NCBI GenBank assembly: GCA_041665385.1
Contig: JBAYIX010000002.1
Location: 50,932 to 114,931 of the forward strand
DNA from: Minisyncoccota bacterium
GTDB lineage: Bacteria; Patescibacteriota; Minisyncoccia; Phycocordibacterales; PALSA-1337
Length of the DNA: 64,000 nt
Reading direction: 5' to 3'
Part shown: positions 3,393-55,583 of the stretch, in pieces
How the letters are laid out: the number at the start of each line of letters is the position of its first letter
How positions within the stretch are numbered: the first letter of the stretch is position 1
The notes under the pieces: generated by a model
What the model saw: only the letters and a program-made list of their open reading frames with translations
The model's database searches: none
What the model was told of the DNA's origin: nothing
Position numbers and translations under genes: made by a program

Positions 3393-3402
3393 TCCCGTAG
3401 CA

Positions 3403-4406: not shown

Positions 4407-5360
4407 CTATTTTACCAGGCGATAAAAAACATTCGAGCCGAAACGAAGGTCGATCGTTTCAAAATTCAAATATTCATTTTTGGTACGAGCATCCGTGAGC
4501 ATGTGCGACCAGAAGGAAACGAAGTTGCTGATCTGGTTTTCGAAACCATTTACTTCATTGAAATAAACAACGATTGTTTCGACGGGTGTCGAAGTGCCTA
4601 CGACGGACTTGTCTTTGCCCGGATTTTCTATGAAGAGTTCGTATTCTCCCCCACCTTTCACGAGTATACCCAGTGGGTTCACACGAGAGAGACGCATAGA
4701 TTCATAAAATCCCTGCAGAGCTCGGAATGTACTCGAAGCAAATGCTTCCCTGCCGATGGCGTCGTTTTGCGGAGCGTCATTCTCTATGTCGAGGAGGTAG
4801 TAGCTGTTGTACATATTTACTGGAAAGACGCCAGCCTTCATATATATGACACCACTCGCATCGGTAAAAAAGCAGTTTTCCGATTGGCCGCCTGTTTCAG
4901 CATTTTCAGCAATACTGAAATTCGGCAATCCCGCACAGACCAGAGCAGCGGGAGACTTTTCGTGAACCTGTATGTCGAGACTGCCGAGACCGGACCGTCG
5001 TATGCTGAGTGATTCTATTCTAGGTGATGTCTCTTTTATAGCTTCGCTAATATCCGCCTTGGAAATAAGTAGAAAGTTCGACTTGGAAAACAGGCCGAGA
5101 TAGTCGCCCTCAAGTGCACGGAGAGCAGCCGCCTCGAGTGCAGGAAGAATGTCCGGGTCTGCGCCGGAAATACTGACATGCCCGATATTGACCCGATCGA
5201 GGTACGTAAAGCTGGAAATAGCATAGGTCCACGAACCAGCGGAAATGAGGACGAGAACTAAGGCAAAAAAGTTTCTCCGGCGTTTGTTTTCCGCAAACTT
5301 TGACGACTGACGCGCCAATGTTGTGATATGCACATTATGAACATCAAATCTTTTTTTCAT
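4407..5360 (-). CDS. ftsQ: FtsQ/DivIB-type cell division protein (POTRA domain)
   Basis: Basic N-terminus, one TM segment, then a POTRA-like region (IESLSIRRSGLGSLDIQVHEKSPAALV). Confidence 0.5.
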   Translation of the reverse strand: MKKRFDVHNVHITTLARQSSKFAENKRRRNFFALVLVLISAGSWTYAISSFTYLDRVNIGHVSISGADPDILPALEAAALRALEGDYLGLFSKSNFLLISKADISEAIKETSPRIESLSIRRSGLGSLDIQVHEKSPAALVCAGLPNFSIAENAETGGQSENCFFTDASGVIYMKAGVFPVNMYNSYYLLDIENDAPQNDAIGREAFASSTFRALQGFYESMRLSRVNPLGILVKGGGEYELFIENPGKDKSVVGTSTPVETIVVYFNEVNGFENQISNFVSFWSHMLTDARTKNEYLNFETIDLRFGSNVFYRLVK

Positions 5361-5385: not shown

Positions 5386-6648
5386 TTATTTTATAACATC
5401 CTTGCCCATGTACTTTGTGAGGACTTCGGGGATCTTGATACTGCCGTCGGGTTGCTGGAAATTTTCGATGAGAGAGACGAGGATACGAGGTGTAGGAATA
5501 GCTGTAGCGTTCAATGAATGAGCGTAGCGCATCACACCCTCGGCATCACGATAGCGGATATTGAGACGTCTGCATTGAAAATCATGGAAATACGATGCGG
5601 AACCGATCTCCCTGTATTTACCTTCCTTGGGAACCCAAAGTTCGATATCATACTTCTTTACTTGGCCGAGACCTAGGTCTGCGCCACAATTCACAACTGT
5701 GTGATACGGTATTCCGAGCGCTTCTATGAACTCTTCGGTATTCCTATTCACCTCCTCGTGATACTTTACGGACGCTTCGTGATTCGCTTCACAGAGTATC
5801 ACTTGCTCAAACTTATAAAATTCATTGACCCGTATGAGACCGTGAACGTCCTTACCATGGGCGCCCGCTTCCCTGCGAAAACACGGGGAAAATCCCAAAT
5901 ATTTCTTTGGAAGCTCGGCCGACGATAGAACTTCGTCACCATGAAGCCCCATTATGGGAACTTCGGCTGTACCTACTAGGTAATCTCCGTCTTGAGTTTT
6001 GTAAAGATCCTCTTCACCTTGAGGCAAGTAACCTGAGCCGTAGAGATTTATAGCCCGAACTATGACGGGAGGAATGATAGGCACAAAGCCTTTCTTTTGG
6101 AAGAATTCCAAGGCAAAATTCCAAATAGCAAAACACAGATTCACCGCATCACCGGTAAGAAAATATCCGCGAAAGCCATGGATCTTGGCTCCGCGCTCTA
6201 GATCGAGCATGCCGAGCTTGGTCATGATCTCGATATGGTTTTTGGGTTCAAATGGAAAACTGGTCTTTTCTCCCCAGACTTTGACTTCGAGATTGTCAGC
6301 ATCAGAATTACCATCAGGTACGGACATATCTGGAATATTTGGCACTGCGAGCATGAGAGCTTGCCACTCTTTCATTGTTCCCTTGAGTTCCTCCTCGTCT
6401 TTTTCCATTTCGCCCTTTACTATTTTCATTTCCCCTATGAGTTTTGTTCTTTCTTCTGGATCTTTTGCTCCACTGATCTTTTCGCTGGCTATGTTTTGTG
6501 CCGCGCGTTTCTTTTCCACAGCGAGCAAGAGTAATTTGCGCTTGTCATCTGATACTAGGAGCTGGTCTACGTCAAATTTTAGATGTTTTTTCTTTGCGGC
6601 TGACGCGATGAGATCCTTGTTTTCTCTGATGAATTTTATGTCTAACAT
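5386..6648 (-). CDS. serS: Seryl-tRNA synthetase
   Basis: N-terminal coiled coil and class II core motifs (FRRE, GLGQ..). Confidence 0.9.
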   Translation of the reverse strand: MLDIKFIRENKDLIASAAKKKHLKFDVDQLLVSDDKRKLLLLAVEKKRAAQNIASEKISGAKDPEERTKLIGEMKIVKGEMEKDEEELKGTMKEWQALMLAVPNIPDMSVPDGNSDADNLEVKVWGEKTSFPFEPKNHIEIMTKLGMLDLERGAKIHGFRGYFLTGDAVNLCFAIWNFALEFFQKKGFVPIIPPVIVRAINLYGSGYLPQGEEDLYKTQDGDYLVGTAEVPIMGLHGDEVLSSAELPKKYLGFSPCFRREAGAHGKDVHGLIRVNEFYKFEQVILCEANHEASVKYHEEVNRNTEEFIEALGIPYHTVVNCGADLGLGQVKKYDIELWVPKEGKYREIGSASYFHDFQCRRLNIRYRDAEGVMRYAHSLNATAIPTPRILVSLIENFQQPDGSIKIPEVLTKYMGKDVIK

Positions 6649-6702
6649 GTGGCTATTTTAGCACAATTATTTTGATTTGCATTACTATGGTAAAATTGTG
6701 AC

Positions 6703-6810
6703 CGTCCCGCCTGCATCCTGCCTTTTCGCAAGATTTGAAATAGTTGTGCAGGGTCCGAGTATTGTAAATACTTCACAAATCTTGCGAAAAGGCAGGATGC
6801 AGGCGGGACG
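6703..6810. repeat. Giant-hairpin element A: perfect 35-bp inverted repeat around a 38-nt conserved loop core
   Basis: Arms are 6703-6737 and 6776-6810, exact reverse complements. Loop AAATAGTTGTGCAGGGTCCGAGTATTGTAAATACTTCA is identical to the element B loop. Confidence 0.85.
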
Positions 6811-6816
6811 AATAAC

Positions 6817-7698
6817 ATGAAGTTAACAACAAAAAGAATATCCATAGAAGACTATCCGATATTGCTCAACGAAATATCGAGCCCTCCCCCACACATGGAC
6901 TTTGCTGGCAGATTTCCAGATAAAAAAGACAAATATCTCTGTGTAGTAGGATCTCGTCACAACAGCGTATACGGTGAAGATGTCACAAGGAAGCTAATAG
7001 CGGGCCTCAAAGGCTATCCCATAACTATAGTCTCTGGTCTTGCTGTCGGTATTGACTCCATCGCTCACGAGGCCGCTCTGGAGAATGGACTGAATACGAT
7101 ATGCTTTCCCGGGTCTGGTTTGTCTCTATCTGTACTCTACCCAGCTGTAAAGCGCGATCTAGCGCTCCGCATCGTGGAGAGTGGTGGCGCGTTGTACTCA
7201 CAGTTCGGCATGAACCAGCTCGGAGACAAATGGACATTTCCGAATAGGAACCGCACCATGGCCGGTGCATCTCATGCGACTCTCATCATCGAAGCGGCAG
7301 AGAAGTCCGGCAGTCTCATCACGACCAGTCATGCCCGAGAATTTGGCCGGGAAGTATTCGCCGTACCAGGATCCATCATATCCGACTTGTCTTATGGACC
7401 ACACAGTCTTATTCGTGACGGCGCGACACCTGTATATTCTGCTGAGGATATCTTGCAGGGATTGGGATTCCAGGTCATACGGACAGATGGAATGATTTCC
7501 GCCTTGCCAAATTATTCTGAGATGAAGCTGGAACCAGATCAGAGAACTATCATAGATCATCTTCGCATCGAGAAGCTTTCATCTACAGGACTTATAGACA
7601 AGACGGGCTTTACAGCGACAAAACTCAATCTGGTGATTTCTGAACTCGAGCTATTGGGATTGGTAAAGGATGCAAATGGAATATATAGACTAATGTAG
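6817..7698 (+). CDS. dprA: DNA-processing protein DprA (Smf)
   Basis: Rossmann-like DprA core (GIDSIAHEAAL, GSGLS, TxxxAxE) and a C-terminal winged helix. Confidence 0.85.
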   Translation: MKLTTKRISIEDYPILLNEISSPPPHMDFAGRFPDKKDKYLCVVGSRHNSVYGEDVTRKLIAGLKGYPITIVSGLAVGIDSIAHEAALENGLNTICFPGSGLSLSVLYPAVKRDLALRIVESGGALYSQFGMNQLGDKWTFPNRNRTMAGASHATLIIEAAEKSGSLITTSHAREFGREVFAVPGSIISDLSYGPHSLIRDGATPVYSAEDILQGLGFQVIRTDGMISALPNYSEMKLEPDQRTIIDHLRIEKLSSTGLIDKTGFTATKLNLVISELELLGLVKDANGIYRLM

Positions 7699-7817
7699 GT
7701 AAAAGCGGACATGCAATGTGCTCTTTTTGCATGATTTGAAATAGTTGTGCAGGGTCCGAGTATTGTAAATACTTCACAAATCATGCAAAAAGAGCACATT
7801 GCATGCCCGCTTTTACC
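7698..7817. repeat. Giant-hairpin element B: 41-bp inverted repeat (1 mismatch) around the same core as A. It fills the whole convergent intergenic gap.
   Basis: Arms are 7698-7738 and 7777-7817. The loop is 100% identical to A. The arms overlap the dprA stop (7696-7698) and the desulfurase stop (7813-7815). Confidence 0.85.
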
Positions 7818-9036
7818 GGATGCGTCCAAGTAATTCTTTTATTATTTTCAATGCTTTCATCACCTCCCTCTCAGTACTCCACCGCCCAAAAGAAAACCGC
7901 ACAGAATTTTTGCTGTTCGCACCGATGGTTTTGAGCACGTAGGATTCATCTTCGTCACGCAGACAGGAGCTCTTGGTAGAAGCCGCAATACCGTGTGCAT
8001 CTAATTCCATTACGAAGAATTCACTCTCTATGCCGGGAATGGAAACATTTAGGATGTGGGGGGACACCGCACCATCGAAATTTGTGTCACGCTCATCACC
8101 CTTGGCACGTTCCCCATTTACCTTTATGTCCTTATTTATCCGAAGTAATTCATTCATAAAAAGTTTCTTGAGCGAGATGAGCCGGACTGACTCTGCTTCG
8201 CGTGTCTGGCTCACGATATTCACAGCCTCGGCAAACCCCATCACGCCTGGAAGATTTTCTGTACCCGAACGCAAACCCTTTTCCTGGCCTCCGCCATACA
8301 TGACAGGAGAAATAGGCAATGAACGCTTCTTGTAAAGTGCACCTATTCCTCTCGGACCAAAGACCTTACTACTGTCGAGAGTGAGCATATCCACACCGAG
8401 TTTTTCTACATTCAAGTCCTGATAGAGTCCCTGCGCGGCATCGGTATGCAAGAGCGGATATTTCACATCCTGATAGGCGAAAGCCGAGGTTTCGGCGTAC
8501 TTTTCCCTAGCTTGGCGGACCATCTTCGCTATCTCACGTATGGGTTCGACAGTACCGATCTCATTGTTCACAGTCATGACAGAGATGAGTACAGTGTCGG
8601 GACGGATCTGTTTTTTGAGACTATCGAAATCGACTGCGCCATCGCTATTTACTCGGATCACCTCTACCCGAACACCCTTTTCGCTGAGGTGGTTCGCACA
8701 TTCGCGGACGGACGAATGTTCTATGGCACTTATGAGCACATGCATGGAGTCATATTCGAGACCAGTATTGCGCAAGCGTTCGATCGAGCCTAATAGCGCA
8801 AGATTGTTACTCTCGGTACCACCAGAAGTGAAAGTGATGTCATCTGGATGAGCATGGAGATATTCCGCAACTGTTTTTCGTGCTGTCACGAGAGCTTCCT
8901 TTGCTAGGACGCCTTCGCTATACCAGGAAGAAGGGTTGGCATACATAGGGTCGGAATACTGCTTCATGGTGCGGAGAACACCCTCATCTATGGGAGTGAG
9001 CGAGGCATAGTCGAGATAGATGCGCTTTTTGAACAT
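7813..9036 (-). CDS. Cysteine desulfurase (NifS/IscS class V aminotransferase)
   Basis: PLP-lysine region and SGGTESNN motif. Start placed at the internal Met MFKKRIYLDYASLTP (ATG at 9036) rather than the upstream extension to 9234. Confidence 0.8.
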   Translation of the reverse strand: MFKKRIYLDYASLTPIDEGVLRTMKQYSDPMYANPSSWYSEGVLAKEALVTARKTVAEYLHAHPDDITFTSGGTESNNLALLGSIERLRNTGLEYDSMHVLISAIEHSSVRECANHLSEKGVRVEVIRVNSDGAVDFDSLKKQIRPDTVLISVMTVNNEIGTVEPIREIAKMVRQAREKYAETSAFAYQDVKYPLLHTDAAQGLYQDLNVEKLGVDMLTLDSSKVFGPRGIGALYKKRSLPISPVMYGGGQEKGLRSGTENLPGVMGFAEAVNIVSQTREAESVRLISLKKLFMNELLRINKDIKVNGERAKGDERDTNFDGAVSPHILNVSIPGIESEFFVMELDAHGIAASTKSSCLRDEDESYVLKTIGANSKNSVRFSFGRWSTEREVMKALKIIKELLGRIR

Positions 9037-21157: not shown

Positions 21158-21177
21158 GCGCATTGGAAACAATGCGC
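21158..21177 (+). terminator. Intrinsic terminator (GAAA tetraloop) after the 20708-21136 gene
   Basis: GCGCATTG-GAAA-CAATGCGC followed by TTTT. Confidence 0.55.
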
Positions 21178-21293
21178 TTTTCTCTCGGGCACACAACTTT
21201 CTTTTTGTCGGATTTGAGAAGTTGTGCAAAGTCCGGGTAATCATAATAGCTCGCAAATCTGACAAAAAGAAAGTTGTGTGCCCGAGAGAAAAG
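21177..21293. repeat. Giant-hairpin element C: 40-bp inverted repeat (1 G.T wobble) around a 37-nt core related to A/B/E
   Basis: Arms are 21177-21216 and 21254-21293. Loop AGAAGTTGTGCAAAGTCCGGGTAATCATAATAGCTCG. Confidence 0.85.
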
Positions 21294-21302
21294 CTGTAGT
21301 GC

Positions 21303-25626: not shown

Positions 25627-26931
25627 TTACGGCGTCAGGCGATTAGGCCCGCGATAGAGGTAGGTCACTTCCCGGACATTTTTTCGGTCTAGGAGAACCA
25701 TGAGAAGCCTCGTAAGTCCCACACCGAATCCTCCGTGCGACGGACAACCGTAGCGAAAGAAGTTGATGTAGTGCGCGAGAGGAGCAAGAGCCAATCCCTT
25801 TTCTCGCGCCTGCTGTTCAAGCGTTTCGACACGATGTTCACGCTGTGCACCAGTCGTCACTTCAAGCCCCTTCCATAAAAGGTCGAAGCTCTTGGTGATG
25901 CTGGGATTGCCGTCATGACGCATGTGGTAGAACGGTCGCACATCGATCGGGTAGTCGATCACAAAAACAAACTCGTGACCAAATTCCTTCTTGATGTATT
26001 CCGCCAAACCCCTTTCGCCGGGCGGATCAAGGTCAGTGATTTGCTCCATGGTATGGCCCTGCTTTGCGAGAATCTCTCGCGCATTTGCCAAGGTAACCCT
26101 TGGAAATGGGAGTTGAGGAATCACTACGTCAACTCCGAAAACGTCCTTGATAGCCTTACCGTATTTCTCTGACACTCGTTTGACCACGTGATGCAACCAA
26201 GTCTCCTCGATATGCATCAGATCTTCATGGGAATCAACCCACGATATCTCCATGTCAACCGAGGTAATCTCGGTGTCATGTCGTGATGTGAACGATGGAT
26301 TGGCACGGAATACAGGCGCAATCTCAAAGATCCGATCAAACCCTGCCGCCATCGCCATTTGCTTGTAGAACTGAGGCGATTGGGCCAGAGTCGCTTTTTG
26401 CCCGAAGTACTCAAGCTGAAACAGTTCTGCACCGGATTCGCTCGCCGTTGCCATAAGCTTCGGCGAATGGACCTCGATGAAGCCGTTGTCAGCCCAGAAC
26501 TCCCTCATCGCCTGCTCCACGGTCGTTTGGACCTGGAATATCAGGAGATTTTCGGGTTGCCTCAAGCTAAGCATCCGCCAGTCCATCTGCAGATCGAGCG
26601 ATGACTCCGGCGTAATCGGTAATGGCGCAATGGCGATGCTTGAAACATCAACCGACTCCGCCACAATCTCAACTCCACCAAGCTTCACGCCCTTGTTTTC
26701 GACCACGCGGCCTACAACAGTGACTGCTGATTCAGCAGTAAGCGAAGATATGGTCTTTTTCAACCCATCCTCGTCACCACCTTTTTCATGACAAATCTGA
26801 ACCTGTCCCGTCTGATCCCTGAGGATCACGAACTGCATTTTCTTTTGGTCGCGAATGACTTGTGAAAAGCCCGCAACTTTTACTCGTTGGCCGATTAAAG
26901 TCGGTATGTATTGAGTCAATGTGCGATTCAT
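25627..26931 (-). CDS. aspS: Aspartyl-tRNA synthetase, archaeal/eukaryal-type class IIb
   Basis: N-terminal OB fold and class II motifs (FRANPS.., QSPQFYKQ, GGFGVGLTRL). The Asp versus Asn assignment is tentative. Confidence 0.7.
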   Translation of the reverse strand: MNRTLTQYIPTLIGQRVKVAGFSQVIRDQKKMQFVILRDQTGQVQICHEKGGDEDGLKKTISSLTAESAVTVVGRVVENKGVKLGGVEIVAESVDVSSIAIAPLPITPESSLDLQMDWRMLSLRQPENLLIFQVQTTVEQAMREFWADNGFIEVHSPKLMATASESGAELFQLEYFGQKATLAQSPQFYKQMAMAAGFDRIFEIAPVFRANPSFTSRHDTEITSVDMEISWVDSHEDLMHIEETWLHHVVKRVSEKYGKAIKDVFGVDVVIPQLPFPRVTLANAREILAKQGHTMEQITDLDPPGERGLAEYIKKEFGHEFVFVIDYPIDVRPFYHMRHDGNPSITKSFDLLWKGLEVTTGAQREHRVETLEQQAREKGLALAPLAHYINFFRYGCPSHGGFGVGLTRLLMVLLDRKNVREVTYLYRGPNRLTP

Positions 26932-27691: not shown

Positions 27692-29770
27692 CTAACTCAG
27701 GTAAAATTTATATATGTCTTTTGGTAAAGACACATGCTTTTCACAATAACCCAAAACCTCCCTAGCCAATATTACAAGAAGTGCTAATCGTTTTCCAAAA
27801 CTTTTATCATCCCGAGGTATTTGTAATATGGTTTTAATCTGATGATCAAATCCGTCAGGTTGCTTAGGTAAACCGGAAAAGAACTTAGTATAATAATTTT
27901 TTTCCTCAGGATAGTTAATTTTGTTGAGATCGAAAATCATATTTTTTATATATCTTACTGCTCTATCAATTTCTAAATTTGCCACCAAAACTTCTTTTCT
28001 TGAATATTGTTTATAAATTTCTGAAAACATTTTAAAACCGTGATACTCGTTATAAACCATGCAAATTTCTCCTAACTCAATAATATTCTCAACTAATCTT
28101 CTTTTTTGCTCTGAAATCGAAATCTTCGTTTTCTTTTTTATTATGTGACTAATTGTTTCAGTACATTGTATCAACTTCACATATGAATAAGCGTGTTTCA
28201 TTTTAGGTGACCATAAGCTGTCTCTAAACGAATTCAGAGACATATATCGACCCGAAAACATAACTCCATTATATTTATACATGCCGGTTTTAAGCCCATA
28301 TTGTTTTTTTATTTTCTCAATATCATCACAATCAAATACACAAGTGAAATCAATATCTGACAGGTCATCAGCTGTACCCCTACCAACACCACCTCGAATA
28401 ATCAGTCCCTGAAAACCTGGGATTATACTGAAAAAGTCTTCAACATATTTGTTTACAATATCCTCATATTCCACAACTGTCATATTATCTAATACATCAT
28501 GTGTTTCAAATTTTTGGTCTAAAATGACTTCGTTTTCATTTTTCATAAGAGGAAGATCAACATTGCTAATATAATTGTCTAGAGTGAAAAGTATTTTTTG
28601 ATATTTACTACTGAACCTGATCACATCTTCCTTTATAAGGCTCTTCTCTTTATAACCAATCAATACTTCCGAAATATATTTCGCTATTTGTTTCATTTCA
28701 TCTTCTTTCATGCCCAGTCTCGTCACTTCCGCAGTTCCCAATCTTAGTCCAACTTTTTGTATCGCAGGTATCCGAATAGGGTTTGTATTGATATTACATT
28801 CAGCAAGCATTTCAAACGCTCTCTGTGGATCAAGCGCGCCCGTGTCTATCCAAACCTGGTGCGTTTCCGTAACACCTTTATCGAGCGTGGGAATTGCAAC
28901 CCCATTCATAGCTAAGCTATTCCCCAATTCCTTAGCGTTTTTTACAACCTGCATAGCATATTCATTCCCAAATTCTTCCATTTCTAATACACTCATATAC
29001 AAAGCCAAAAGACTTCCTGTGTGAAGGCTAGATATGTAATCATTTGATATAGAATCAATTTTATTTATCAGATCTTGGTTATTAGTCAAGATAATTCCTT
29101 TTTGGGAACCAAAGAATGTCTTATGGGTACTGCCGCTTAAAATATCCGCTCCGTTTTCTATTGGATTCGGAAACGACTTACCGGCGATTAAACCCAAGAC
29201 ATGCGAACCATCATATACGATCGGAGCATGATATTTTTCCGCAAGTTTTTTTAATCCATCAAGAGGAGAATAAAAACTAATGATTGTATTATCCAAATAT
29301 ATTAATCGCGGTTTTCTAATCTCGAACGTTTTCTCTATTTCTTCCAAATCGAATCGATAATTTATATTACTAAATGGTAAATAGTTAATATTCAGATGAT
29401 ACATACGACATATTTTTTCGGTCGACGCATGGCCTCCATCAAGTGGTTTCAGAGTGTAAATGTTATCATTTTTATCTGTTAGACTGCTGATAATCAAACT
29501 CATACAACTCATCCCTGAAAGCGGTGATATGTTGACATATTTTACGTTAAACATTTTGCAAAGATGTTGCTTCAGTTTTTCTTTAATTTCAAAAAGTTCT
29601 TTATTGTTTGGAAAATCATTGAGAATATACCTATTGGAAAGCAACGATGCCTGCAATTGGCTAACCTTATCGCTAATTATGTTTTCTGAGGCAATAAGGT
29701 TTATACATCTGCTTTTCCGTTCCTCCTGTATTGCAACAGTTCTAATTAGATTATCTAAATCGGATTCCAT
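27692..29770 (-). CDS. Fusion protein: N-terminal serine hydroxymethyltransferase-like PLP enzyme plus C-terminal Pol-beta-superfamily nucleotidyltransferase
   Basis: SHMT blocks LIASENI, GGH, DGSHVLGLIAG, STHKTFFGSQKG (PLP-Lys) and IRLGTAEVTRLGM. The NTase motif GGVGRGTADDLSDIDF lies at about aa 460-480. 692 aa. Confidence 0.65.
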   Translation of the reverse strand: MESDLDNLIRTVAIQEERKSRCINLIASENIISDKVSQLQASLLSNRYILNDFPNNKELFEIKEKLKQHLCKMFNVKYVNISPLSGMSCMSLIISSLTDKNDNIYTLKPLDGGHASTEKICRMYHLNINYLPFSNINYRFDLEEIEKTFEIRKPRLIYLDNTIISFYSPLDGLKKLAEKYHAPIVYDGSHVLGLIAGKSFPNPIENGADILSGSTHKTFFGSQKGIILTNNQDLINKIDSISNDYISSLHTGSLLALYMSVLEMEEFGNEYAMQVVKNAKELGNSLAMNGVAIPTLDKGVTETHQVWIDTGALDPQRAFEMLAECNINTNPIRIPAIQKVGLRLGTAEVTRLGMKEDEMKQIAKYISEVLIGYKEKSLIKEDVIRFSSKYQKILFTLDNYISNVDLPLMKNENEVILDQKFETHDVLDNMTVVEYEDIVNKYVEDFFSIIPGFQGLIIRGGVGRGTADDLSDIDFTCVFDCDDIEKIKKQYGLKTGMYKYNGVMFSGRYMSLNSFRDSLWSPKMKHAYSYVKLIQCTETISHIIKKKTKISISEQKRRLVENIIELGEICMVYNEYHGFKMFSEIYKQYSRKEVLVANLEIDRAVRYIKNMIFDLNKINYPEEKNYYTKFFSGLPKQPDGFDHQIKTILQIPRDDKSFGKRLALLVILAREVLGYCEKHVSLPKDIYKFYLS

Positions 29771-31184: not shown

Positions 31185-32528
31185 CTATTCTGACAATAGG
31201 TTATCGATCCTATTAATATCCCTCGGGAAAAGAGTGGCTTCCTTGATATTTTCTAGACCAAGAAGCTTTGCCGTAATGCGCTCCAACCCGAGTCCCAGAC
31301 CTCCGTGTGGAGGCATGCCATATTTGAAAGCTTGAAGATAATATTTGAACTTTTCAGGATCAAGCTTCTTTTCCTTCATGGAACTAACAAGGTCATCGTA
31401 GTTATGGATGCGTTGCGCGCCAGTAGTGATTTCTACTCCACGGAAGAGCAAGTCAAAACCTTTAGTATATGTTGGATCTTTTTCATCTCTATAAGTGTAG
31501 AATGGGCGCTTGGCTGTCGGAAAATTAGTTACGAAAATAAAGTCGGAATTAAAATTCTTCTCGGCATATTTACAGAGCCATCTTTCATGTTCAGGTTCAA
31601 GATCCGGCTCATTTGTGCAATCTTTACAGGTATCTTTTGTAATAAGTTCCTGAGCTTCGCGTAACGTCAATTTTGGAATTTCTTTCGGAACAGCTGGTAT
31701 AGTGGCACCGAGCAAGGCAAAATCGTCAACACAGGAAACACGAAGAACATTTTCAAGATATTGCAAAAATTGATTTTCGGCATACATGACATCATGATGG
31801 TCTTTAATATAACCCATTTCCATATCTAAACTGGTATATTCATTGAGGTGACGCGTTGTACTATGTTTCTCCGCACGATATACATTACCAACAGAAAAAA
31901 CACGTTCAAATACGCCGACCATAATCTGTTTATATAATTGGGGACTTTGAGCCAGATGTGCGACATGTTTGAAATATGTAACATCAAAAGAGTTCGCCCC
32001 GCCCTCGGCATCATCACCAATTAATTTCGGCGCTTGAAATTCTGTAAAACCCTCTTTTGTAAAGAAGTCTCTGAAAGCTTTGGCAATAGCTGCTTGAACC
32101 TTGAAAACAGCCGCATGTTTTTGACTTCGAAGAGTGAGCGGGAGGTAATCGAGATATGTATCGATATTAATTTCAGAATCTTTTTCAAACGGAAGTTCCT
32201 TGGCTATTCCAATAACCTTGATACGTTTAATCTCAAGTTCGATATCCCCGTTCATTTTTCCGACTTGAATGTTCTTTTGGGGACGTTTGTTTACGATGCC
32301 AATAATGTCTACGACCCATTCAGAACGTATTTCCTTCGAAGCCTCAAGGGCTTCTGAATTATTAGGAAGTACCACCCCTTGTATATTGCCTGTCCGATCT
32401 CGAAACTCGAAAAATACCATTTTACCCTGATCACGACGTACATCAACATATCCTGAAATGCTGATTTCTTTACCGACAAATCCTTTTACATCTTTTATGT
32501 ATGTTCTTTGCATTGTACTTGCGACCAA
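31185..32528 (-). CDS. asnS: Asparaginyl-tRNA synthetase (class IIb), paralogue of the upstream AspRS-like gene
   Basis: RAEKHSTTRHLNEYTSLDMEM resembles the AsnRS motif 2 region. QSPQLYKQ and GGLGLGLERI class II motifs. Confidence 0.6.
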   Translation of the reverse strand: MVASTMQRTYIKDVKGFVGKEISISGYVDVRRDQGKMVFFEFRDRTGNIQGVVLPNNSEALEASKEIRSEWVVDIIGIVNKRPQKNIQVGKMNGDIELEIKRIKVIGIAKELPFEKDSEINIDTYLDYLPLTLRSQKHAAVFKVQAAIAKAFRDFFTKEGFTEFQAPKLIGDDAEGGANSFDVTYFKHVAHLAQSPQLYKQIMVGVFERVFSVGNVYRAEKHSTTRHLNEYTSLDMEMGYIKDHHDVMYAENQFLQYLENVLRVSCVDDFALLGATIPAVPKEIPKLTLREAQELITKDTCKDCTNEPDLEPEHERWLCKYAEKNFNSDFIFVTNFPTAKRPFYTYRDEKDPTYTKGFDLLFRGVEITTGAQRIHNYDDLVSSMKEKKLDPEKFKYYLQAFKYGMPPHGGLGLGLERITAKLLGLENIKEATLFPRDINRIDNLLSE

Positions 32529-34604: not shown

Positions 34605-36536
34605 CTAAATTTCTATAACTGATGATGATGTAAGCTTGAGAGTTACAAATCCAGATATTGGAGCACGCGGATCTATATTTGTATTATCCTCACAGGACAC
34701 ATCGAATCGATAATCTCCATTTTCTACACCGACAGTGTCAAGTCCGTCAACCGTTTGGTCAGACTTCAATTTATTATCATCCCAATACGGCTTCGATGGG
34801 TCAGAAGGATCCAGTTTCCAGTGAGCATAAGCTGATCCATTTGATACTCTTGTCACACTTGTTTGACATTCATATCCCGTAACTTCCTCAGGTATCTGCC
34901 ACCACAGACCGAATGTTCCACCTTTCTTCGCACTATGGATCCTACCTGATTTCGTCAATGCCTCTGTAGATGTCTTACCGATAAATATCTTCAGATCACT
35001 CGATGGCACAGCTCCACCTTCCTGATGCACAGTTCCGCAAACGTCCGGTGCAGAAGGCGAGGTTCCATCGGCATTGGTTGCCACCACATACACATTGTAA
35101 TTTTGAGCGACAGGGTTCGAGTTGTTACTCGGGAAGCCGCTAACAGTAATGCTCGGTGGCACAGTAGACAGTGTCGAATAGGTTATACCATTTATGCTCC
35201 ACTGATACTTATATCCTGTACCAGCACCGCCTGTTGCAGTGATTTTTGCTGCGGGGATTGTGAGAGAACCTTGTATCACCGAACCATCGGAATTGAGAGT
35301 TGCCATGGTATATCCAGGAGCATAAGGTGCCGAACACGATACTACCGGCGGGGGCGTTCCCTGCACGCAACCAGGGCAGTTCACCGGAGGAGCTGCGTAA
35401 AATCTCGTCGCAGGGTCATCAATAGCATATCCATTTCTACCAGGGGTATTTGCATTGAAGTTCACCCAGCCCACGACATCACCAGCCCAAGCAAAACCTC
35501 GGAAGACGCCGGTTTTCGGATTCATAGTCACACCACCATTGTCAGTTGTGAGGTCAGGAGACGTATGGTTGCTACCAGAGAGCCGCATACAGCCGTCCCA
35601 GCCACCTGCGACTGCGGGGTTGGCCTTGGGAGTTAGGAATCGTGCCCAGCCCGTGACTTCTCCAGTTTTGAAATCGAGTTGAGCCTTGGTGGCAGAAGGA
35701 CAATCGGAAATATCTGCCTCGTTGAAACTGAGCCAACCAATACTATTTGACCATGCATAACCTGTGATATCGGCGACATCACCGGTCGTATTTGCAACAA
35801 TGACTTTGTAGTTGGAACGACTGCAACCAGTACTCGAAGGTGTCGGCGTAGGAGATGCTCCTGGGGCAACTTGACTACAATTGAGGTTGATATAACCGGT
35901 ATTGGATGACCATGCCCAACCATAGACATTGCCACCGCGACTGACGCCAACAGTGACATTCGTGGTTTCTGTTGTTACTTGGGATGCAAAATTCTCCACG
36001 CGCACAGTGATTATATGGGGGCCGTTCAGTCCGGAACCTATCCTCCAAACAACCGATCTCGATGGGTCTGTCCAGGCAGACGCGGCCATAGAAACAGCAT
36101 CATCTAGGAGTACGGTAGAATCCACAGAGATAATTATCCTTCGGATAAATAGTCCGGTTATATTTACATTGATATCCACATCCTGAGCAGTATTGAACAC
36201 TGCACCTTCTGTTGGAGAAGTCATGGTCACTACCGGCGCTATAGCACCTCGAAACGGGTCAAATCCGCTACTAGGTGTGGGTGTAGCAGAACTAGATGAC
36301 GTCGGTCTCGGTAAGCCTATAGAAGTCGGGCTTGCAGAAGGCGATGCAGTAGACGTAGGCGACGCCGAGGCACTAGCAGAAGGAGGAGTAGCAGATGCGC
36401 TAGCAGTAGAAGTCGGTGAAGCTGGGGGCGGAATGATTATCGGCCTAGGCGAACTCGTCTGTGCCGACACAACCTGGAAAAGGAAGCTGAAGCAACCGAC
36501 CGCAAGAACGCTAAATATTATGAAATTTTTTCTCAT
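34605..36536 (-). CDS. Large secreted/surface protein with a Pro/Ser/Thr/Ala-rich linker and repeated GYAWS.N.GW..FN motifs
   Basis: Signal peptide, low-complexity PTSTASAS linker, and at least 4 repeats of the GW-containing motif. Confidence 0.65.
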   Translation of the reverse strand: MRKNFIIFSVLAVGCFSFLFQVVSAQTSSPRPIIIPPPASPTSTASASATPPSASASASPTSTASPSASPTSIGLPRPTSSSSATPTPSSGFDPFRGAIAPVVTMTSPTEGAVFNTAQDVDINVNITGLFIRRIIISVDSTVLLDDAVSMAASAWTDPSRSVVWRIGSGLNGPHIITVRVENFASQVTTETTNVTVGVSRGGNVYGWAWSSNTGYINLNCSQVAPGASPTPTPSSTGCSRSNYKVIVANTTGDVADITGYAWSNSIGWLSFNEADISDCPSATKAQLDFKTGEVTGWARFLTPKANPAVAGGWDGCMRLSGSNHTSPDLTTDNGGVTMNPKTGVFRGFAWAGDVVGWVNFNANTPGRNGYAIDDPATRFYAAPPVNCPGCVQGTPPPVVSCSAPYAPGYTMATLNSDGSVIQGSLTIPAAKITATGGAGTGYKYQWSINGITYSTLSTVPPSITVSGFPSNNSNPVAQNYNVYVVATNADGTSPSAPDVCGTVHQEGGAVPSSDLKIFIGKTSTEALTKSGRIHSAKKGGTFGLWWQIPEEVTGYECQTSVTRVSNGSAYAHWKLDPSDPSKPYWDDNKLKSDQTVDGLDTVGVENGDYRFDVSCEDNTNIDPRAPISGFVTLKLTSSSVIEI

Positions 36537-36622
36537 TTTTTCTTTTGTTTATGATAAAAGCCATTACAACTGGTGTAATGATATCACATGCCATAAATGC
36601 GGCCTGTGGATAGTGGGAATAG

Positions 36623-36735
36623 GCAAGTAAAAGAGATGGCCTGCACTTTCAGGCAAATAGCAGAGCTACCTCGAAAACAGCCGACCACAATATTCTTCTA
36701 TTTGCCTGAAAGTGCAGGCCATCTCTTTTACTTGC
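36623..36735. repeat. Giant-hairpin element D: perfect 38-bp inverted repeat with the core in opposite orientation. The right arm overlaps the valS stop codon.
   Basis: Arms are 36623-36660 and 36698-36735. The loop reverse complement shares TTCGAGGTAGCTC and TTGTG blocks with element E. Confidence 0.8.
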
Positions 36736-38881
36736 CCGGCCACTTTTCCACAATGAGTAGTCTTTTGCCTGGAATAAGCATACATGACCATATCTCTTCC
36801 GTCACAAAAGGAATAAATGGGTGCAAAGCTTTCAAAAGTTTAGCTAAAATAAGCAATAAGAGTTGTTTCTTGGAATTTTTCTCATCTTCAGTACCCTCTT
36901 TCAGAGTTTTCTTGCTCTCTTCTAGGATCACATCGGCAAATCGGTGCCAGGCATAATGATACAGTTTCTCTCCTGCCATATAAAAGCGAAAATTTTCCAT
37001 ATCCGTAGTCACATCGGTAAGGAGACGGCTCAATTCTTCTTCGAGCTTGCGGTCATCTGCTGTCCAGCTGTCGAAATCCTCCACAAAAGCCGTATTTTCT
37101 GTTTCGGTAAAGACAAATCGGGAAATATTCCATAGCTTGTTCACAAACTTTTTATAAGCGGTAATCTTGTCTTCGGAAAGAGCGAGTGATGTGCCCGGAG
37201 TATTGCCGACCACGAGACCCATGCGGAAAGCGTCGGTTCCGAACTTGGCGGTGAGATCCAGAGGATTGATGACATTACCCTTACTCTTGCTCATCTTTTG
37301 CCCCTTGCCATCGAGGACGAGTCCGTGGAGGTAAACAGTCGCAAATGGCACCTCGCCTGTGACATACAAACCGAGCATTATCATACGTGACACCCAGAAA
37401 AAGATGATCTCGCCCGCCGTTTCCATGACATCAGTGGAATAATAATTCTTGAAATCTGGACTATCCGGAAAACCAAGTGAAGCAAAAGGCCATTGAGACG
37501 AAGAAAACCAGGTATCGAATGTATCGTTATCTTTCCTGACTTCCCCGCCGCACTTTGCACATTTTGTGATCTTGTTGTCCAGATCTACGTAACCTTCGCC
37601 GCATTTTTCGCAGATCTTGGCGGGAATGGGTATGCCCCACACGATCTGACGAGAAATATTCCAGTCCATAATGTTTCCCAACCAATGTTCAGTGATCTTC
37701 TCATAATGTTCGGGTATGTATACAACCTCCTTATTTTTTATTTTCTCCAATGCCTTCTCAGCCAAAGGTTTCATCTTTACGAACCACTGACTCTTCACCT
37801 GCGGTTCTATGGTCGTACCACATTTGTAGCAAGTACGGACCACATGTTTGTAGTTTTCATCTATTTTTTCTACGAGTCCCTTTACTCGAAGTTTCTCGAC
37901 TATGAGCGCTCGGACCTTACTGATATGCTGGCCTGCGAACTCTCCGGCAATGGGCAGGAGCTTTCCTTTTTCATCTATTATTTGTTCCTTGTCCAAACCA
38001 TGTCTCTCGGCAATGTCAAAGTCCACCGGATCGTGCCAAGGTGTGATAGTCATGACACCAGTGCCAAACTCCATATCTATGGCCTCATCTTTGATAACGG
38101 TTGCAGTTATGGGGCCATTGATCCATTCCAGGTCTATCTTTTGGCCGTCTTTGTACTGTGCATATCTCTTATCGGCAGGATGCATGACAACGTATTTGTC
38201 ACCGAACTTTGTTTCGGGACGAGAAGTACCAATGGTGAAAGGGCCGTACTTGAGATAGTAGAATTTTTCAGTGCGTTCCTCGTCCTTTATTTCCAGATCA
38301 GAAAATGAAGTCTGATGCTTGGGGCACCAGCTGACTATACGCTTTCCCCTGTATAGGAGACCGTCGGCGGAGAGTTTTGCAAATGTATTGTAAACAGTCC
38401 GCACAATAGCGGGATCGAGAGTGAACTTTTCCCGGGACCAATCACAGGAAGCACCCATCTTCCTCACTTGAGACTTGATATTTGCAGAATTTGTAAGAGT
38501 AAAGTCCAGAATTTCCTTGTAAAGGTCAGCAGGCGGTATTTCGAAACGTGTGCGACCTTCTTTTTCCAGTTTCTTTTCGTATACGACTTGTGTTTCAAAG
38601 CCAGCGTGGTCGAGACCGGGTAACCAGAGTGTCCTCTTGCCACGCATACGCTGGTAGCGGGTGATGATATCTTCGATAGTCATGACGAGACCGTGGCCGG
38701 CATGGAGAGAGCCGTTGGCATTGGTGGGAGGCATGAGCATACAAAATGTCTCTGCATCGGGAGCAGTGACGCCCACCTTCACACACTGGTCCGGGTCAAA
38801 AAAACCACTCTTTTCCCAGAGCGAGTAGATCTTGTCCTCGGTAGACGCGGGATCGTAGGGTTTCAGGAATTTTCCATCCAT
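36728..38881 (-). CDS. valS: Valyl-tRNA synthetase (short form)
   Basis: HAGH (HIGH) and KMSKS motifs, a ValRS-like editing domain and a zinc-knuckle CxxC pair. 717 aa. Confidence 0.8.
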   Translation of the reverse strand: MDGKFLKPYDPASTEDKIYSLWEKSGFFDPDQCVKVGVTAPDAETFCMLMPPTNANGSLHAGHGLVMTIEDIITRYQRMRGKRTLWLPGLDHAGFETQVVYEKKLEKEGRTRFEIPPADLYKEILDFTLTNSANIKSQVRKMGASCDWSREKFTLDPAIVRTVYNTFAKLSADGLLYRGKRIVSWCPKHQTSFSDLEIKDEERTEKFYYLKYGPFTIGTSRPETKFGDKYVVMHPADKRYAQYKDGQKIDLEWINGPITATVIKDEAIDMEFGTGVMTITPWHDPVDFDIAERHGLDKEQIIDEKGKLLPIAGEFAGQHISKVRALIVEKLRVKGLVEKIDENYKHVVRTCYKCGTTIEPQVKSQWFVKMKPLAEKALEKIKNKEVVYIPEHYEKITEHWLGNIMDWNISRQIVWGIPIPAKICEKCGEGYVDLDNKITKCAKCGGEVRKDNDTFDTWFSSSQWPFASLGFPDSPDFKNYYSTDVMETAGEIIFFWVSRMIMLGLYVTGEVPFATVYLHGLVLDGKGQKMSKSKGNVINPLDLTAKFGTDAFRMGLVVGNTPGTSLALSEDKITAYKKFVNKLWNISRFVFTETENTAFVEDFDSWTADDRKLEEELSRLLTDVTTDMENFRFYMAGEKLYHYAWHRFADVILEESKKTLKEGTEDEKNSKKQLLLLILAKLLKALHPFIPFVTEEIWSCMLIPGKRLLIVEKWPGK

Positions 38882-38908: not shown

Positions 38909-39022
38909 AAAGAGCCCAGCACACAATCATAATTTTCATAAAAGTGTAAGAAGTTGTGCAGGGTCAACGTTCGAGGTAGCTCTACACTTTTATGAAAATT
39001 ATGATTGTGTGCTGGGCTCTTT
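38909..39022. repeat. Giant-hairpin element E: perfect 40-bp inverted repeat around a 34-nt core AGAAGTTGTGCAGGGTCAACGTTCGAGGTAGCTC
   Basis: Arms are 38909-38948 and 38983-39022, exact reverse complements. The loop shares AGTTGTGCAGGGTC with A/B. Confidence 0.85.
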
Positions 39023-39036
39023 CAATCAAATTTTGC

Positions 39037-40928: not shown

Positions 40929-41080
40929 GGAGCTTGATGAATTGTTTTTATAGCGTGTTCGCAAAATCGCCCACTCCAAATTACTGCCGTATTTGCTTCC
41001 AAGGATTCAGCAAATACGGGCAATTTGTCGGGACTCGAATCACATTGCGAACACGCTATAAAAACAATTCACCAAGCTCC
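40929..41080. repeat. Giant-hairpin element F: 36-bp inverted repeat (1 mismatch) around an 80-nt structured core that differs from A-E
   Basis: Arms are 40929-40964 and 41045-41080. The core has its own hairpin CCGTATTTGC..GCAAATACGG. Confidence 0.75.
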
Positions 41081-45616: not shown

Positions 45617-45715
45617 TCACGCGTCCTCGCCTACTGGCTCGGCGCTCGACCCCGCCTCGCTCGCCTTCGCTCGCTCCGGCTTTCGACTCTCTCCCCCGGA
45701 GATCACACACGACAC

Positions 45716-45745
45716 AAAAAGTCCCAGGATAACCTGGGACTTTTT
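45716..45745. terminator. Bidirectional intrinsic terminator next to the tRNA-Glu 3' end
   Basis: AAAAA-GTCCCAGG-ATAA-CCTGGGAC-TTTTT. Confidence 0.65.
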
Positions 45746-45752
45746 GGTCGTG

Positions 45753-52745: not shown

Positions 52746-52984
52746 ATATGCAGATACGTTTCCCCCACCCAGCACAGGAAGAAGAATCCGAGGGACGTTT
52801 CGGAGGCCGGTTCGCCTCCGTAGCTTTAGCGAAGGAGGGCGAGGCGGCCGAGAACCAGCCGCTCTGCCAGCAGGCAGAGACGGCGTGTCCCGAGGAACTT
52901 CTTCGTGTGCTGGGTGGGGGGCAGTGGCTATTGAACTTATATACCCCCATAGACAAAAAGGTGGCTATGTTATACTATATTTAC

Positions 52985-53488
52985 ATGAACAAAACACCTT
53001 ATATCGCTTACGCCCTCGCGGGCATACTCGCTGTCGGTGGCGCAATAGCGCTCACTGCAGTACTTAACAGCCCTGATACTAGCCCGGTCGAAGGCGAAAT
53101 AGCCACTTCCAGACAAGGAATGACAAATGCCGCCCTTGCTATCCAGAGCATAGACCTCGGAATTCCACAGAATATCCGCTGGAGCGTATCCGACTTCCCT
53201 TCAGAGTTTGTAAAGATTTCCATTATACGCAAAACGGCTTCAAACCCCGACACATACGAACTCGTCCGTACAGTATCTGACAAAACTCCCAATGACGGCG
53301 TGGCAACCTGGGTACCGACCGAAGGAGATGTCGGCACAGACATGCTCGCCGAAGTGGGATGCACAGAGTCTACCGAAGCCTGCAGTCCTTCCGTATCACG
53401 ATCCAAGATCGCTGTGAATTACTCACGAGACAACCTCAATACCGCTGCCCTCTACCAAGCAATAGAGCAAAAAAATAACAACAAATAA
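52985..53488 (+). CDS. Hypothetical membrane-anchored protein
   Basis: Track ORF 52682-53488. The start was moved to the internal Met (MNKTPYIAYALAGILAVGG..) because the upstream part spans the terminator and a G+C-rich inverted repeat. Confidence 0.45.
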   Translation: MNKTPYIAYALAGILAVGGAIALTAVLNSPDTSPVEGEIATSRQGMTNAALAIQSIDLGIPQNIRWSVSDFPSEFVKISIIRKTASNPDTYELVRTVSDKTPNDGVATWVPTEGDVGTDMLAEVGCTESTEACSPSVSRSKIAVNYSRDNLNTAALYQAIEQKNNNK

Positions 53489-54804
53489 CCCAAGAATGGC
53501 AGACCTAGACGTTTCCTAGCTGTCTCACCTTTTAACAAATGATTCCTGCGTTCCGAATTATCGGCGCGGGAATTTTTGTGTGCGGGTTCATGGATGGCTC
53601 TCGCAGAAGAAGCCAGGAAAATAGTATGCTTGCCGTAGCGACGGTCTATCTTGTCCATTGCTTCCAGGACCTTGTGCGTACTACCTATCTTGTCCGCATT
53701 GCCAAAGAGGTCTATAGTCTCGGCATTCTCATGATCCAGATCCATAAGCACGATGCCAGTAGCACGATATGGTACTTGCAATTTGTAGACCAGGTGCAGT
53801 TTCTCAAGGATGAGAGAGATGATGGCCTGTGGAGCAGATACAGACTGAGGGAGTTTTATTTCCAAACCATGGTAATAGAAATCCTGCGTCTTCAGAAAAA
53901 AAGCTATGCGCCGAGTAAAGAGACTATGCCTACGGAGCTTGATGCAGGCATTCTCGATATTTTTGGACAGCTGAGAAAAGACAAATTCTCGGTTGGTAGA
54001 AGGTGGGGTAAAAGTCCTAGTCTTACTTATCGATGCATAGTCGTGCTTTTGACCCAAGGTGAGCGGATATACGAACTCTCCATTGAGCTCGCGATGTATT
54101 TCTTGAAATGGTTTGCTCAAGTGTCCACTCACCCATTCCGGACTCTGTATGGCAAAGTCGAGAGCACTTACAAAACTTTCGGATGAAGAGGGTTTGATTA
54201 TTTTTTGAAGATAAGCAGAAGTGTTGGGACCAATACCCCAGATCTTACCTACAGGTAACTTCGCTAAGTAGAGGTGCATATTCTTCCCCGGAATGATGGT
54301 GAGCCCATCAGGTTTGCGCCATTTCGAACCTACCTTTGCCATGACTTTATTTAGTGAAAGTCCGACAGAAAATGTCATACCGAGCTCGGTACATAGTTCG
54401 TGCTGTATCTTTATGGCCATATCCTCGTATGACAAATGATTTGCCCGTCTCATACCTGTCAGATCGGCGAAACATTCATCTATGCTGTATTCTTCGACGG
54501 CTTCGGTGTAGCGACGAACTATTTTGTACATTCTTTCGGAGTAGAGACTATAGGTCTCATAGTCAGAAGGTAATATTATGACGTCAGGGCAGATCTTCCG
54601 TATTTCTGAAAGTTTCATCGCCCGTCGCACGCCTCGAGCGCGTGCCTCATAACTCATGGAAGATGCTATGCCACGTTCTTTACCTGTGACTACTGGTTTT
54701 CCTTTCAAAGCAGGATTCTTGGCGACCTCGCAGGATGCAAAAAATGAATCCCCATCAATATGAAGTATCGCGCGCGGAAAGGAGTGGTGAGTGAGTATTG
54801 GCAT
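53452..54804 (-). CDS. dinB: Y-family DNA polymerase (DinB/Pol IV-like)
   Basis: ILHIDGDSFFASCE catalytic motif, SIDECFAD, and the little-finger domain. It lies downstream of lexA. Confidence 0.8.
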   Translation of the reverse strand: MPILTHHSFPRAILHIDGDSFFASCEVAKNPALKGKPVVTGKERGIASSMSYEARARGVRRAMKLSEIRKICPDVIILPSDYETYSLYSERMYKIVRRYTEAVEEYSIDECFADLTGMRRANHLSYEDMAIKIQHELCTELGMTFSVGLSLNKVMAKVGSKWRKPDGLTIIPGKNMHLYLAKLPVGKIWGIGPNTSAYLQKIIKPSSSESFVSALDFAIQSPEWVSGHLSKPFQEIHRELNGEFVYPLTLGQKHDYASISKTRTFTPPSTNREFVFSQLSKNIENACIKLRRHSLFTRRIAFFLKTQDFYYHGLEIKLPQSVSAPQAIISLILEKLHLVYKLQVPYRATGIVLMDLDHENAETIDLFGNADKIGSTHKVLEAMDKIDRRYGKHTIFLASSARAIHEPAHKNSRADNSERRNHLLKGETARKRLGLPFLGYLLLFFCSIAW

Positions 54805-54824
54805 AATTTTATTATAGTAACTAA

Positions 54825-54997
54825 GCGTTCAGGTCCTACGTGCGGTGGAGGGACATTTGGAGTCCGAGCCGGATACAGCGTATCTGCATTATCATTACAA
54901 GGCTCGGACGAAACTAGCTCAAAATCCGCAACAGGCGTTCTATGAGCAGTTGCGGATTTTGAGCGTGTCCCGGAATCCGCACGTAGGACCTGAACGC
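54825..54997. repeat. Compound long hairpin between lexA and dinB: perfect 21-bp outer inverted repeat with nested 13-bp and 9-bp hairpins
   Basis: GCGTTCAGGTCCTACGTGCGG at 54825-54845 and its exact reverse complement at 54977-54997. Inner hairpins CAAAATCCGCAAC..GTTGCGGATTTTG and GTCCGAGCC..GGCTCGGAC. Confidence 0.7.
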
Positions 54998-55013
54998 GCT
55001 AGATATATAGTAA

Positions 55014-55583
55014 CTAATATTTCCTAACCACCCCCTTCACCACTGCGGCAACCTTCATATCATTCTCCGGATAGATAAGATCATACTTGGGATTTGCAGG
55101 CTCCAAATACACCTGACTGCCGCGTCGACGAAAATACTTCATGGTCCAGCCTCCATCTACTTCTGCTATGACTATTTCCCCGATCTTGGGTTCGCGCGCG
55201 ATACGCTCTGCTATGACGAGATCGCCTTCTTGGATGCCGGCATCTATCATGGAGTCACCTTTTACTTCTAGTAGGTATGTCGCTTCTTTGTTCTCTATGA
55301 GGTATTCATCGAGACTCATGGTATCTACCAGTTCTTCTTCTGCCGCAGTAGGAAAACCTGCTTCTACCAGACCGAGGAGACGAGTCTCACCAAAGAGTTT
55401 GTTCGGTATGAGCTTGCCTTGAGAATCCTTACTCACAAAACCACCTTCGACGAGCTTGTTCACGAGTTTGTATACAGAGTTCTTGGACTTGAAACCGAGG
55501 AGCTTCATGATCTCGGCATAGCCGGGCATACGCTTGTGATCGCGGTAGAAGTTTAGGATTTTGTTTTTATAAGAATCGAACAT
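55014..55583 (-). CDS. lexA: LexA repressor (S24 peptidase)
   Basis: N-terminal winged HTH and C-terminal S24 domain with the Ser (GDSM) and Lys (MKY) catalytic dyad. Confidence 0.85.
   Translation of the reverse strand: MFDSYKNKILNFYRDHKRMPGYAEIMKLLGFKSKNSVYKLVNKLVEGGFVSKDSQGKLIPNKLFGETRLLGLVEAGFPTAAEEELVDTMSLDEYLIENKEATYLLEVKGDSMIDAGIQEGDLVIAERIAREPKIGEIVIAEVDGGWTMKYFRRRGSQVYLEPANPKYDLIYPENDMKVAAVVKGVVRKY

Follow-up and report, generated by a model that had tools for sequence, protein, structure and literature searches.

The stop codon of valS lies inside one arm of a very large hairpin, and the same bases reappear inverted at the far end of the other arm. How did the end of a gene come to be written into both arms? 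The question was posed for a window of 64,000 nucleotides from a Minisyncoccota bacterium (contig JBAYIX010000002.1), the window being the whole stretch of DNA that was analysed. An initial annotation had offered two answers, that the arm was made by copying the gene end in inverted orientation or that the element supplied the genes with new 3′ ends, and had taken either to mean something other than simple insertion. The features at the valS end are as follows.

36622 to 36664: arm of element D distal to valS; bases 36622-36630 (GGCAAGTAA) mirror the valS end
36665 to 36693, minus strand: loop of element D, 29 nt, minus strand reading ATATTGTGGTCGGCTGTTTTCGAGGTAGC, subtype as in the loop of element E
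36694 to 36736: arm of element D proximal to valS, including the TAA of valS (36728-36730) and the two codons before it (36731-36736)
36728 to 38881, minus strand: valS, 717 aa, with the conserved C-terminus ...VEKWP, then GK and the stop
36604 to 36613, minus strand: conserved box CTATCCACAG, the downstream edge of the D insertion, 0-12 nt past the valS stop in relatives
34605 to 36536, minus strand: next gene, 643 aa, Big_7-like, syntenic in relatives, with a conserved upstream region between D and its ATG

An inverted-repeat search gave D two arms of 43 nt, paired at 42/43 positions (98%, one mismatch), around the 29-nt loop, and the computed RNA fold is -81 kcal/mol (z = -12.8). The ORF at 36728..38881 is valS (NCBIfam valS E=4e-233; Pfam tRNA-synt_1 and Anticodon_1), and its product is the NCBI MAG protein MFA6459020.1, whose best homologues are all from Candidatus Paceibacterota / Patescibacteria. 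On the plus strand the gene end reads TTA at 36728-36730 (stop TAA), CTT at 36731-36733 (Lys AAG) and GCC at 36734-36736 (Gly GGC). The outermost 9 bp in the right arm are the valS bases GGC AAG TAA (36736-36728), and GGCAAGTAA opens the left arm. The overlap and its inverted copy were therefore correctly described, except that 9 bp are involved and not 8. Nine extra paired bases would be expected by chance at a rate of about 4^-9. The mirrored TAA in the left arm also closes a spurious plus-strand ORF of 145 aa (36193-36630), antisense to the 643-aa gene.

ValRS proteins in this clade end near position 700 when aligned to the bacterial models of 860 positions, and the usual C-terminal part is absent. 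We considered whether D had truncated valS and rejected this, because ValRS of 710-760 aa, ending ...VEKWP plus none to a few variable residues, is the norm for the clade.

D belongs to a lineage-specific family of intergenic palindromes, repeats of about 110-120 bp, in the genome of a Candidatus Paceibacterota MAG. The window holds five hairpins of this family (family 1), A to E, of 108-120 bp; the other four are listed here.

6703 to 6810, plus strand: element A, 35-bp arms, 100% paired, 38-nt loop, between the starts of serS and dprA
7698 to 7817, plus strand: element B, arms 7698-7738 and 7777-7817 (41 bp), loop identical to that of A
21176 to 21294, plus strand: element C, 44-bp arms, 31-nt loop of subtype 2, between convergent genes, overlapping neither stop
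38909 to 39022, plus strand: element E, 40-bp arms, 100% paired, 34-nt loop, upstream of valS

The loop motif AGTTGTGCAGGGTC is present in A, B and E and has two changes in C; the loop of D has diverged and lies in the opposite orientation. Read from the outside to the loop, an arm consists of a variable 8-21 nt, GCAC, a T-run, 4-6 nt, and GATTTG or an A-rich segment. Conservation falls away from the loop. A and B agree at 38/38 loop positions, and outward along the arm in 10-column bins at 9/10, 8/10, 5/10 and 2/10; loop plus inner 20 columns match at 55/58 against 7/22 in the outer arm (Fisher p = 1.5e-8). Five further pairs of copies show the same loop-to-outer drop (Fisher p < 0.02). The closest paralogue of D is E, and here the similarity spans the whole arms out to AAAGAG, where the arms of E start without GGCAAGT; about 35 bp of arm thus travels with the element.

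While the sequences of the arms differ from copy to copy, the pairing within each copy is nearly perfect. Across 13 hairpins the arms are 95-100% paired and 486/510 arm positions are Watson-Crick. Since just 10/24 of the mismatches are of the transition type (G.T/A.C), the symmetry is a property of the DNA and not one tuned to RNA wobble; there is no signal of tolerated wobble pairs.

Scanning metagenomes for the loop motif returned 59 stretches, of which one contig was genuine, JGI contig Ga0172379_10000958; it carries all three of the further copies found, and its common sequence with the window is limited to element cores of 58-76 nt at about 90% identity. The same scan of 185,579 species genomes (one per GTDB species) gave seven matches, all chance or coding, and that of viral contigs a single chance match. 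Rfam, at gathering and E-value thresholds, recovered two tRNAs and no family match, with generic miRNA-precursor hairpin models below threshold. The arms, considered as guides or spacers, had no match elsewhere in the window or in the compared loci. A promoter in the loop was also considered and dropped, as the -35/-10 matches were weak and missing from some subtypes. The arm of E proximal to valS (38998-39025) carries TTGAAA-16-CATAAT, the best sigma-70-like match of the region (10/12), facing valS.

Metagenome assemblies can make palindromic joins, and hairpins of this kind might be fold-back chimeras introduced by the assembler. We consider this extremely improbable. The hairpins are internal to contigs, their flanks are unique and syntenic, they are present in the NCBI, ENA and JGI records, and their loops form a sequence family. 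A Logan assembly of another sample (L002), made independently and with a different assembler, shows 100% identity across 2232 nt and breaks off 30 nt inside the arms of E and D, which is the behaviour of a k=31 assembler on meeting a true inverted repeat. The hairpins are real in independent assemblies.

The history of the valS site can be read from relatives. The hairpin after valS is absent in L003, L004 and L007 (ValS 81-82% identical) and in L084 (77%), all of which keep the order small ORF, valS, large Big_7-like gene, and none of the four has an inverted repeat around the valS stop. Their genes run TGGCC(N), 0-2 codons and their own stop, followed by CTATCCACAG within 0-12 nt. In the window the stop and CTATCCACAG are 123 nt apart, 106 of them element D. 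With four relatives lacking the hairpin, and 0-12 nt set against 123 nt, the comparison shows D to be an insertion in the window lineage, unless it was lost four times. In the collections searched no ValS relative exceeded 82% identity, and 90% protein clusters gave only fragments from the same genome. Apart from the mirrored bases, some 100 nt of D are an ordinary insertion of a member of the repeat family, absent in four relatives and homologous to E and its relatives, so that "not simple insertion" overstated the case.

Insertion leaves the nine outer base pairs to be explained, and one explanation is that D brought its own ends, GTAAAAG including the TAA, and replaced the tail and stop of valS. 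The ValS tails of the three closest relatives are A, none and E, not GK, and these genes have TGA or TAG stops of their own. The residues after EKWP are highly variable among ValS homologues, so a new tail should be tolerable, and GTAAAAG is found at the stop in both B and D. Replacement requires, however, that the old tail and stop were deleted, and there is no remnant of them between the element and TATTCCCA. The paralogue E lacks GGCAAGT, and L084, which has no hairpin, ends its valS in CCG GGT AAA TAG, giving WPGK and a stop, the same residues as in the window. GK-like tails are rare (2-3/115 ValS homologues) and the L084 match could be coincidence; it is suggestive of a GK end that is older than D.

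The two genes that flank element B provide a further comparison.

6817 to 7698, plus strand: dprA, stop TAG (7696-7698) at the ancestral position
7813 to 9036, minus strand: cysteine desulfurase, 407 aa in the public annotation, ending CGG TAA inside the B arm

Element B (DNA fold -47.6 kcal/mol, z = -13.3) occupies the entire spacer between these convergent genes. Its arms had been said to begin at the dprA TAG and to include the desulfurase TAA. The second part holds, the right arm containing the desulfurase stop (TTA at 7813-7815) and 2 nt of the last codon. The first holds for one base: G7698, the first base of the arm, is the third base of the TAG, and the arm touches the stop by that 1 nt only. 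The dprA stop falls at the same codon in the window and in the sister genomes L078, L080 and L081, where the proteins end ...YRLM, ...YKIA, ...YRLV and ...YCLA, respectively. L078, with a hairpin that stops 19 nt short of the desulfurase gene, has the same CGG TAA at the end of that gene. These comparisons support ancestral ends for both dprA and the desulfurase gene.

Taken together, the comparisons speak against the genes having gained new ends from the element, and a tail and stop supplied by it seem improbable to us at valS as well. Of the two original proposals, an inverted copy of the gene end in the far arm is the better, although it applies to the outermost 5-9 bp and not to the other 100 nt or so of D.

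The spacers on either side of dprA were compared in the same sister genomes, L078 (GCA_964555555.1, the same genome as L003), L080 and L081, whose DprA is 58-61% identical to that of the window. Giant hairpins are present in both the serS/dprA and the dprA/desulfurase spacers of L078 and L080. The L081 contig begins inside dprA, so one spacer was examined there, and the dprA/desulfurase spacer also has a hairpin. These hairpins have arms of 29-45 bp, up to 100% paired, and loops of 34-62 nt, and their sequences are unlike those in the window. Within a genome, though, they resemble one another: both L078 hairpins share the loop motif GAGAAGCAGTGG...ACACGG, and both L080 hairpins share ATAAT..GTGGTAG..GTGGTGGT.CG in opposite orientations. 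L083 (DprA 53% identical) has no hairpins at these sites. L085 has no more than a plain 19-bp palindrome at the serS/dprA site and a member of a different, nested-palindrome family at the dprA/desulfurase site. L085 also carries a palindrome with 42-bp arms, 93% paired, at 4674-4800, inside the desulfurase ORF (about aa 180-222), where its protein has some 31 extra residues compared with that of L078. This is an intragenic, in-frame-like insertion of a sister-family palindrome, like those of the Rickettsia palindromic elements (RPE).

The elements can insert, D and E having been gained in the window lineage and one L085 palindrome lying within a gene. The intergenic sites, for their part, are repeatedly or persistently occupied, with occupants that turn over or homogenise within genomes.

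Upstream of dprA, a promoter-like box, TTTGCAT..TGGTAAAAT, ends 6 nt before the start of element A. With this conserved box just upstream, the hairpin in the serS/dprA spacer is probably, as predicted from its position, the 5′ leader of dprA. A box of the form TTTGCAT..TG(G)TAAAAT, in the style of an extended -10, is found in four genomes (window 6676-6696; L078 4324-4347; L080 4883-4901; L085 2940-2958).

A second explanation for the outer arm of D is that the element or its conserved core was inserted at the apex of an existing 6-bp inverted repeat, GGCAAG-TAA-CTTGCC. The outer pairs would then be old site sequence and no duplication mechanism would be needed. The outward loss of identity between copies (A versus B, p = 1.5e-8) speaks for this, and L085 has a plain 19-bp palindrome where the window, L078 and L080 have long-loop hairpins. 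At the dprA/desulfurase site the outer arms begin with an A-tract and then GCG in the window, L078 and L081 alike. The far arm and flank of D, CTTGCCTAT, resembles the L004 spacer CTGGCGTAT at 7/9 positions, so the far side could be ancestral too. Against these points, the four hairpin-less relatives have no inverted repeat at the valS stop, D and E are alike along the whole arms to AAAGAG with about 35 bp moving with the element, and the window shows no enzyme that targets insertion to an apex. We regard a pre-existing repeat as unlikely, though it is the strongest of the rival readings.

The explanation that we tentatively favour, while giving it slightly less than an even chance, is that the mirror copy at D was made after insertion, when fold-back template switching extended the palindrome. 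A family member with arms from about AAAGAG, like E, would have inserted between the valS stop and the conserved stretch ahead of the following gene. The 3′ end of a nascent strand would then pair with the first arm, copy the adjoining flank and return to its template. If the fold-back followed synthesis of the second arm, the inverted first flank would be appended at the other boundary and the copied gene left intact. Extension at D would take insertions only, the element plus TTACTTGCC, whereas copying in the opposite direction, or an end supplied by the element, would require loss of the old tail and stop. The same fold-back process could keep the arms of one copy identical while the arms of different copies diverge. 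We infer both the mechanism and its direction at D from patterns in the sequence.

Three papers (PMC7202029, PMC8794818, PMC8604942) describe quasipalindrome template switching as a process that perfects imperfect inverted repeats, creates and maintains stems, and inverts spacers, and two of them (PMC8604942, PMC8794818) report loop inversion by template switching between inverted repeats. Loops are found in opposite orientations in paralogous hairpins, D versus E and L080 4906-4997 versus 5890-6005, which is what inversion of a spacer between perfect arms should produce. L078 and strain L079 carry one and the same hairpin in separate assemblies, apart from a single SNP, fresh in L079, that lies in one arm and is unmirrored in the other. 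A possible independent extension is seen in L078. There the left arm has as its first bases the TAAAAT of the TGGTAAAAT box, which is outside hairpin A in the window, and the inverse of this box segment stands directly before the conserved AATAAC-ATG. We take this case as no more than suggestive, given an AT-rich region and weak further homology (a 6-mer plus a weak 5/6 match).

Several observations count against extension. The tails of the closest relatives (A, none, E), the rarity of GK and the 7/9 likeness to the L004 spacer all do so, as does the fact that template switching alone leaves the conservation of the loop between copies unexplained. In a further reading, the loop and inner stem (about 60-75 nt) would themselves be the conserved unit, a new kind of mobile or converting DNA that is copied into the apex of existing hairpins, with fold-back synthesis extending the stem over neighbouring genes. 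Such loop homing would involve no terminal repeats, target duplication or nearby transposase and, if true, would cover the loop-to-base gradient of identity, the presence at orthologous sites of loops that are specific to each genome, and the engulfed stops. There is little probability, in our judgement, that it is the correct account.

Fold-back extension treats the stems as products of DNA synthesis. They could instead be maintained by compensatory selection on a functional RNA, an outsized bidirectional terminator or a stabiliser of mRNA 3′ ends, with the TAA overlap merely an A-tract of a terminator abutting a stop in a compact genome. B, C, D and E are at gene 3′ ends, the stem base in B, D and E is AAAAG..GC-rich...CTTTT, and an ordinary terminator of the same style is found at 45715-45746. 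There is a terminator-like mini-hairpin followed by a T-run inside the D arm, and 4-5 genomes have hairpins at the same intergenic sites. A terminator or 3′-stabiliser role is therefore plausible. As the reason for the pairing, however, it is very doubtful. G.U-compatible mismatches are not in excess, stems of 35-45 bp with loops of 29-38 nt are far from the geometry of intrinsic terminators, and no Rfam family scored above threshold. The orientation of the loop is unrelated to transcription (D sense, E antisense), A lies in a 5′ leader or divergent promoter region, and the sister-family palindrome of L085 is within a coding region. From these last three observations we infer that the family is primarily palindromic DNA of a selfish or neutral kind, which persists at places where the harm is small.

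The window has a second family of larger, nested palindromes (150-190 nt), with members at 3080-3245, 3225-3412, 40929-41080, 52762-52920 and 54825-54997, and in relatives at L080 1382-1553 and L085 3886-4044, the latter at the dprA/desulfurase site. Their centres share GAGGACTGT.TGAG ... inner hairpin AAATTTC.GGACAAAA ... ACGAG..TTCCGCA, and the arms often start (C)GTCCCG. For the copy that separates the Dus gene from the Peptidase_S11 gene, L080 has an orthologue by position. The Peptidase_S11 stop lies in an arm of the 3225-3412 palindrome and was dropped as evidence on gene ends, the stop being ancestral (VK and a stop in four genomes) and the outer pairing weak. A glycosyltransferase C-terminus inside an element arm in L056 was likewise uninformative, with homologues no more than 49% identical and tails too variable. 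The palindrome at 54825-54997 lies between genes for a Y-family polymerase (IMS/IMS_C) and an S24 LexA/UmuD-like peptidase (53452-55583), and the ENA assembly of the same genome stops at about 55045.

Elsewhere, the window genes are housekeeping genes, with no transposase. Outside the window, to its left and adjoining the tRNA at window 597-667, is an apparent integrated island (L075 11109-21020), free of family-1 hairpins, that encodes a serine recombinase, a replication protein of the Rep_ORF2-G2P type and a type I restriction-modification system. Two paralogous genes for class II (Asp/Asn/Lys-type) tRNA synthetases, 25627-26931 and 31185-32528, are 4 kb apart. Between them is an ORF of 692 aa (27692-29770), its first 366 residues SHMT, in a stretch with a GC content of 0.33.

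A search of the literature found no palindromic repeat family described in CPR/Patescibacteria, whose genomes are small and tightly packed. In practical terms, hairpins of this kind break short-k assemblies and create false mirrored ORF ends such as that of 36193..36630. The family is also suited to asking how far hairpins can spread into gene ends and promoters harmlessly.

Among the closest known systems are the REP and REPIN sequences, the extragenic palindromes associated with RAYT (PMC3116915, PMC3733652), which are likewise multicopy intergenic palindromes in lineage-specific families; they fold into long hairpins of some 100 nt and are located for the most part behind genes and in the spacers of convergent pairs. 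In a REPIN, however, the arms with their GTAG/CGTC tags are conserved and the spacer varies (PMC3116915, PMC3733652), whereas in this family it is the loop and inner stem that are conserved, with outer arms that vary. The unpaired GTAG/CGTC tag of a REP has no counterpart; A begins CGTC, but the tetranucleotide is paired. No transposase, integrase or reverse transcriptase was found among the window ORFs, nor any RAYT (Y1 HUH transposase), for which some 50 ORFs gave no Pfam match. MITEs would have direct target-site duplications, and there are none at the flanks of A-E, those of D being inverted. They would also have conserved terminal inverted repeats, whereas the AAAGAG..GCAC end is confined to D, E and the A hairpin of L078, with A, B and C different. 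A conserved core with variable termini is thus the reverse of the REPIN and MITE pattern.

Integron attC sites have R and L core sites, extrahelical bases and an integrase; our hairpins have no bulges in the arms and no integrase in the window, and they are flanked by syntenic housekeeping genes. Bidirectional intrinsic terminators placed over stops are similar at the base of B, D and E, with an A-tract holding the TAA, a GC-rich stem and a T-tract. They differ in having stems of 5-15 bp, loops of 3-8 nt and a U-tract, where these elements have stems of 35-45 bp and loops of 29-38 nt with conserved sequence; B, D and E have their T-run within the stem, A and C have none, and copy A is in a promoter or leader region.

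The Rickettsia palindromic elements reportedly described by Ogata et al. in 2000 are said to be repeats of 100-150 bp in a small genome, tolerated beside and inside genes. Palindromes of 108-120 bp between genes, together with the intragenic palindrome at L085 4674-4800, fit that description. The likeness is one of description. RPE copies are alike along their whole length, while the stems here are near-perfect and copy-specific.

These stems look like the products of quasipalindrome template switching, with perfect arms, differences mirrored in both arms, flipped loops (D/E; A/B of L080) and arms that extend into adjacent functional sequence, although that is a mutational process and not a family of elements, and here it is read from sequence patterns. 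Near-perfect stems of 35-45 bp have been kept over long divergence and recur at the same intergenic sites in sister genomes. With this persistence and recurrence, and with the reversed pattern of conservation, the family is a natural system in which to study the building and upkeep of long hairpins by template switching. The family is an unusual variant of the REP-, RPE- and MITE-like palindromic repeats, and not a new way of making gene ends.
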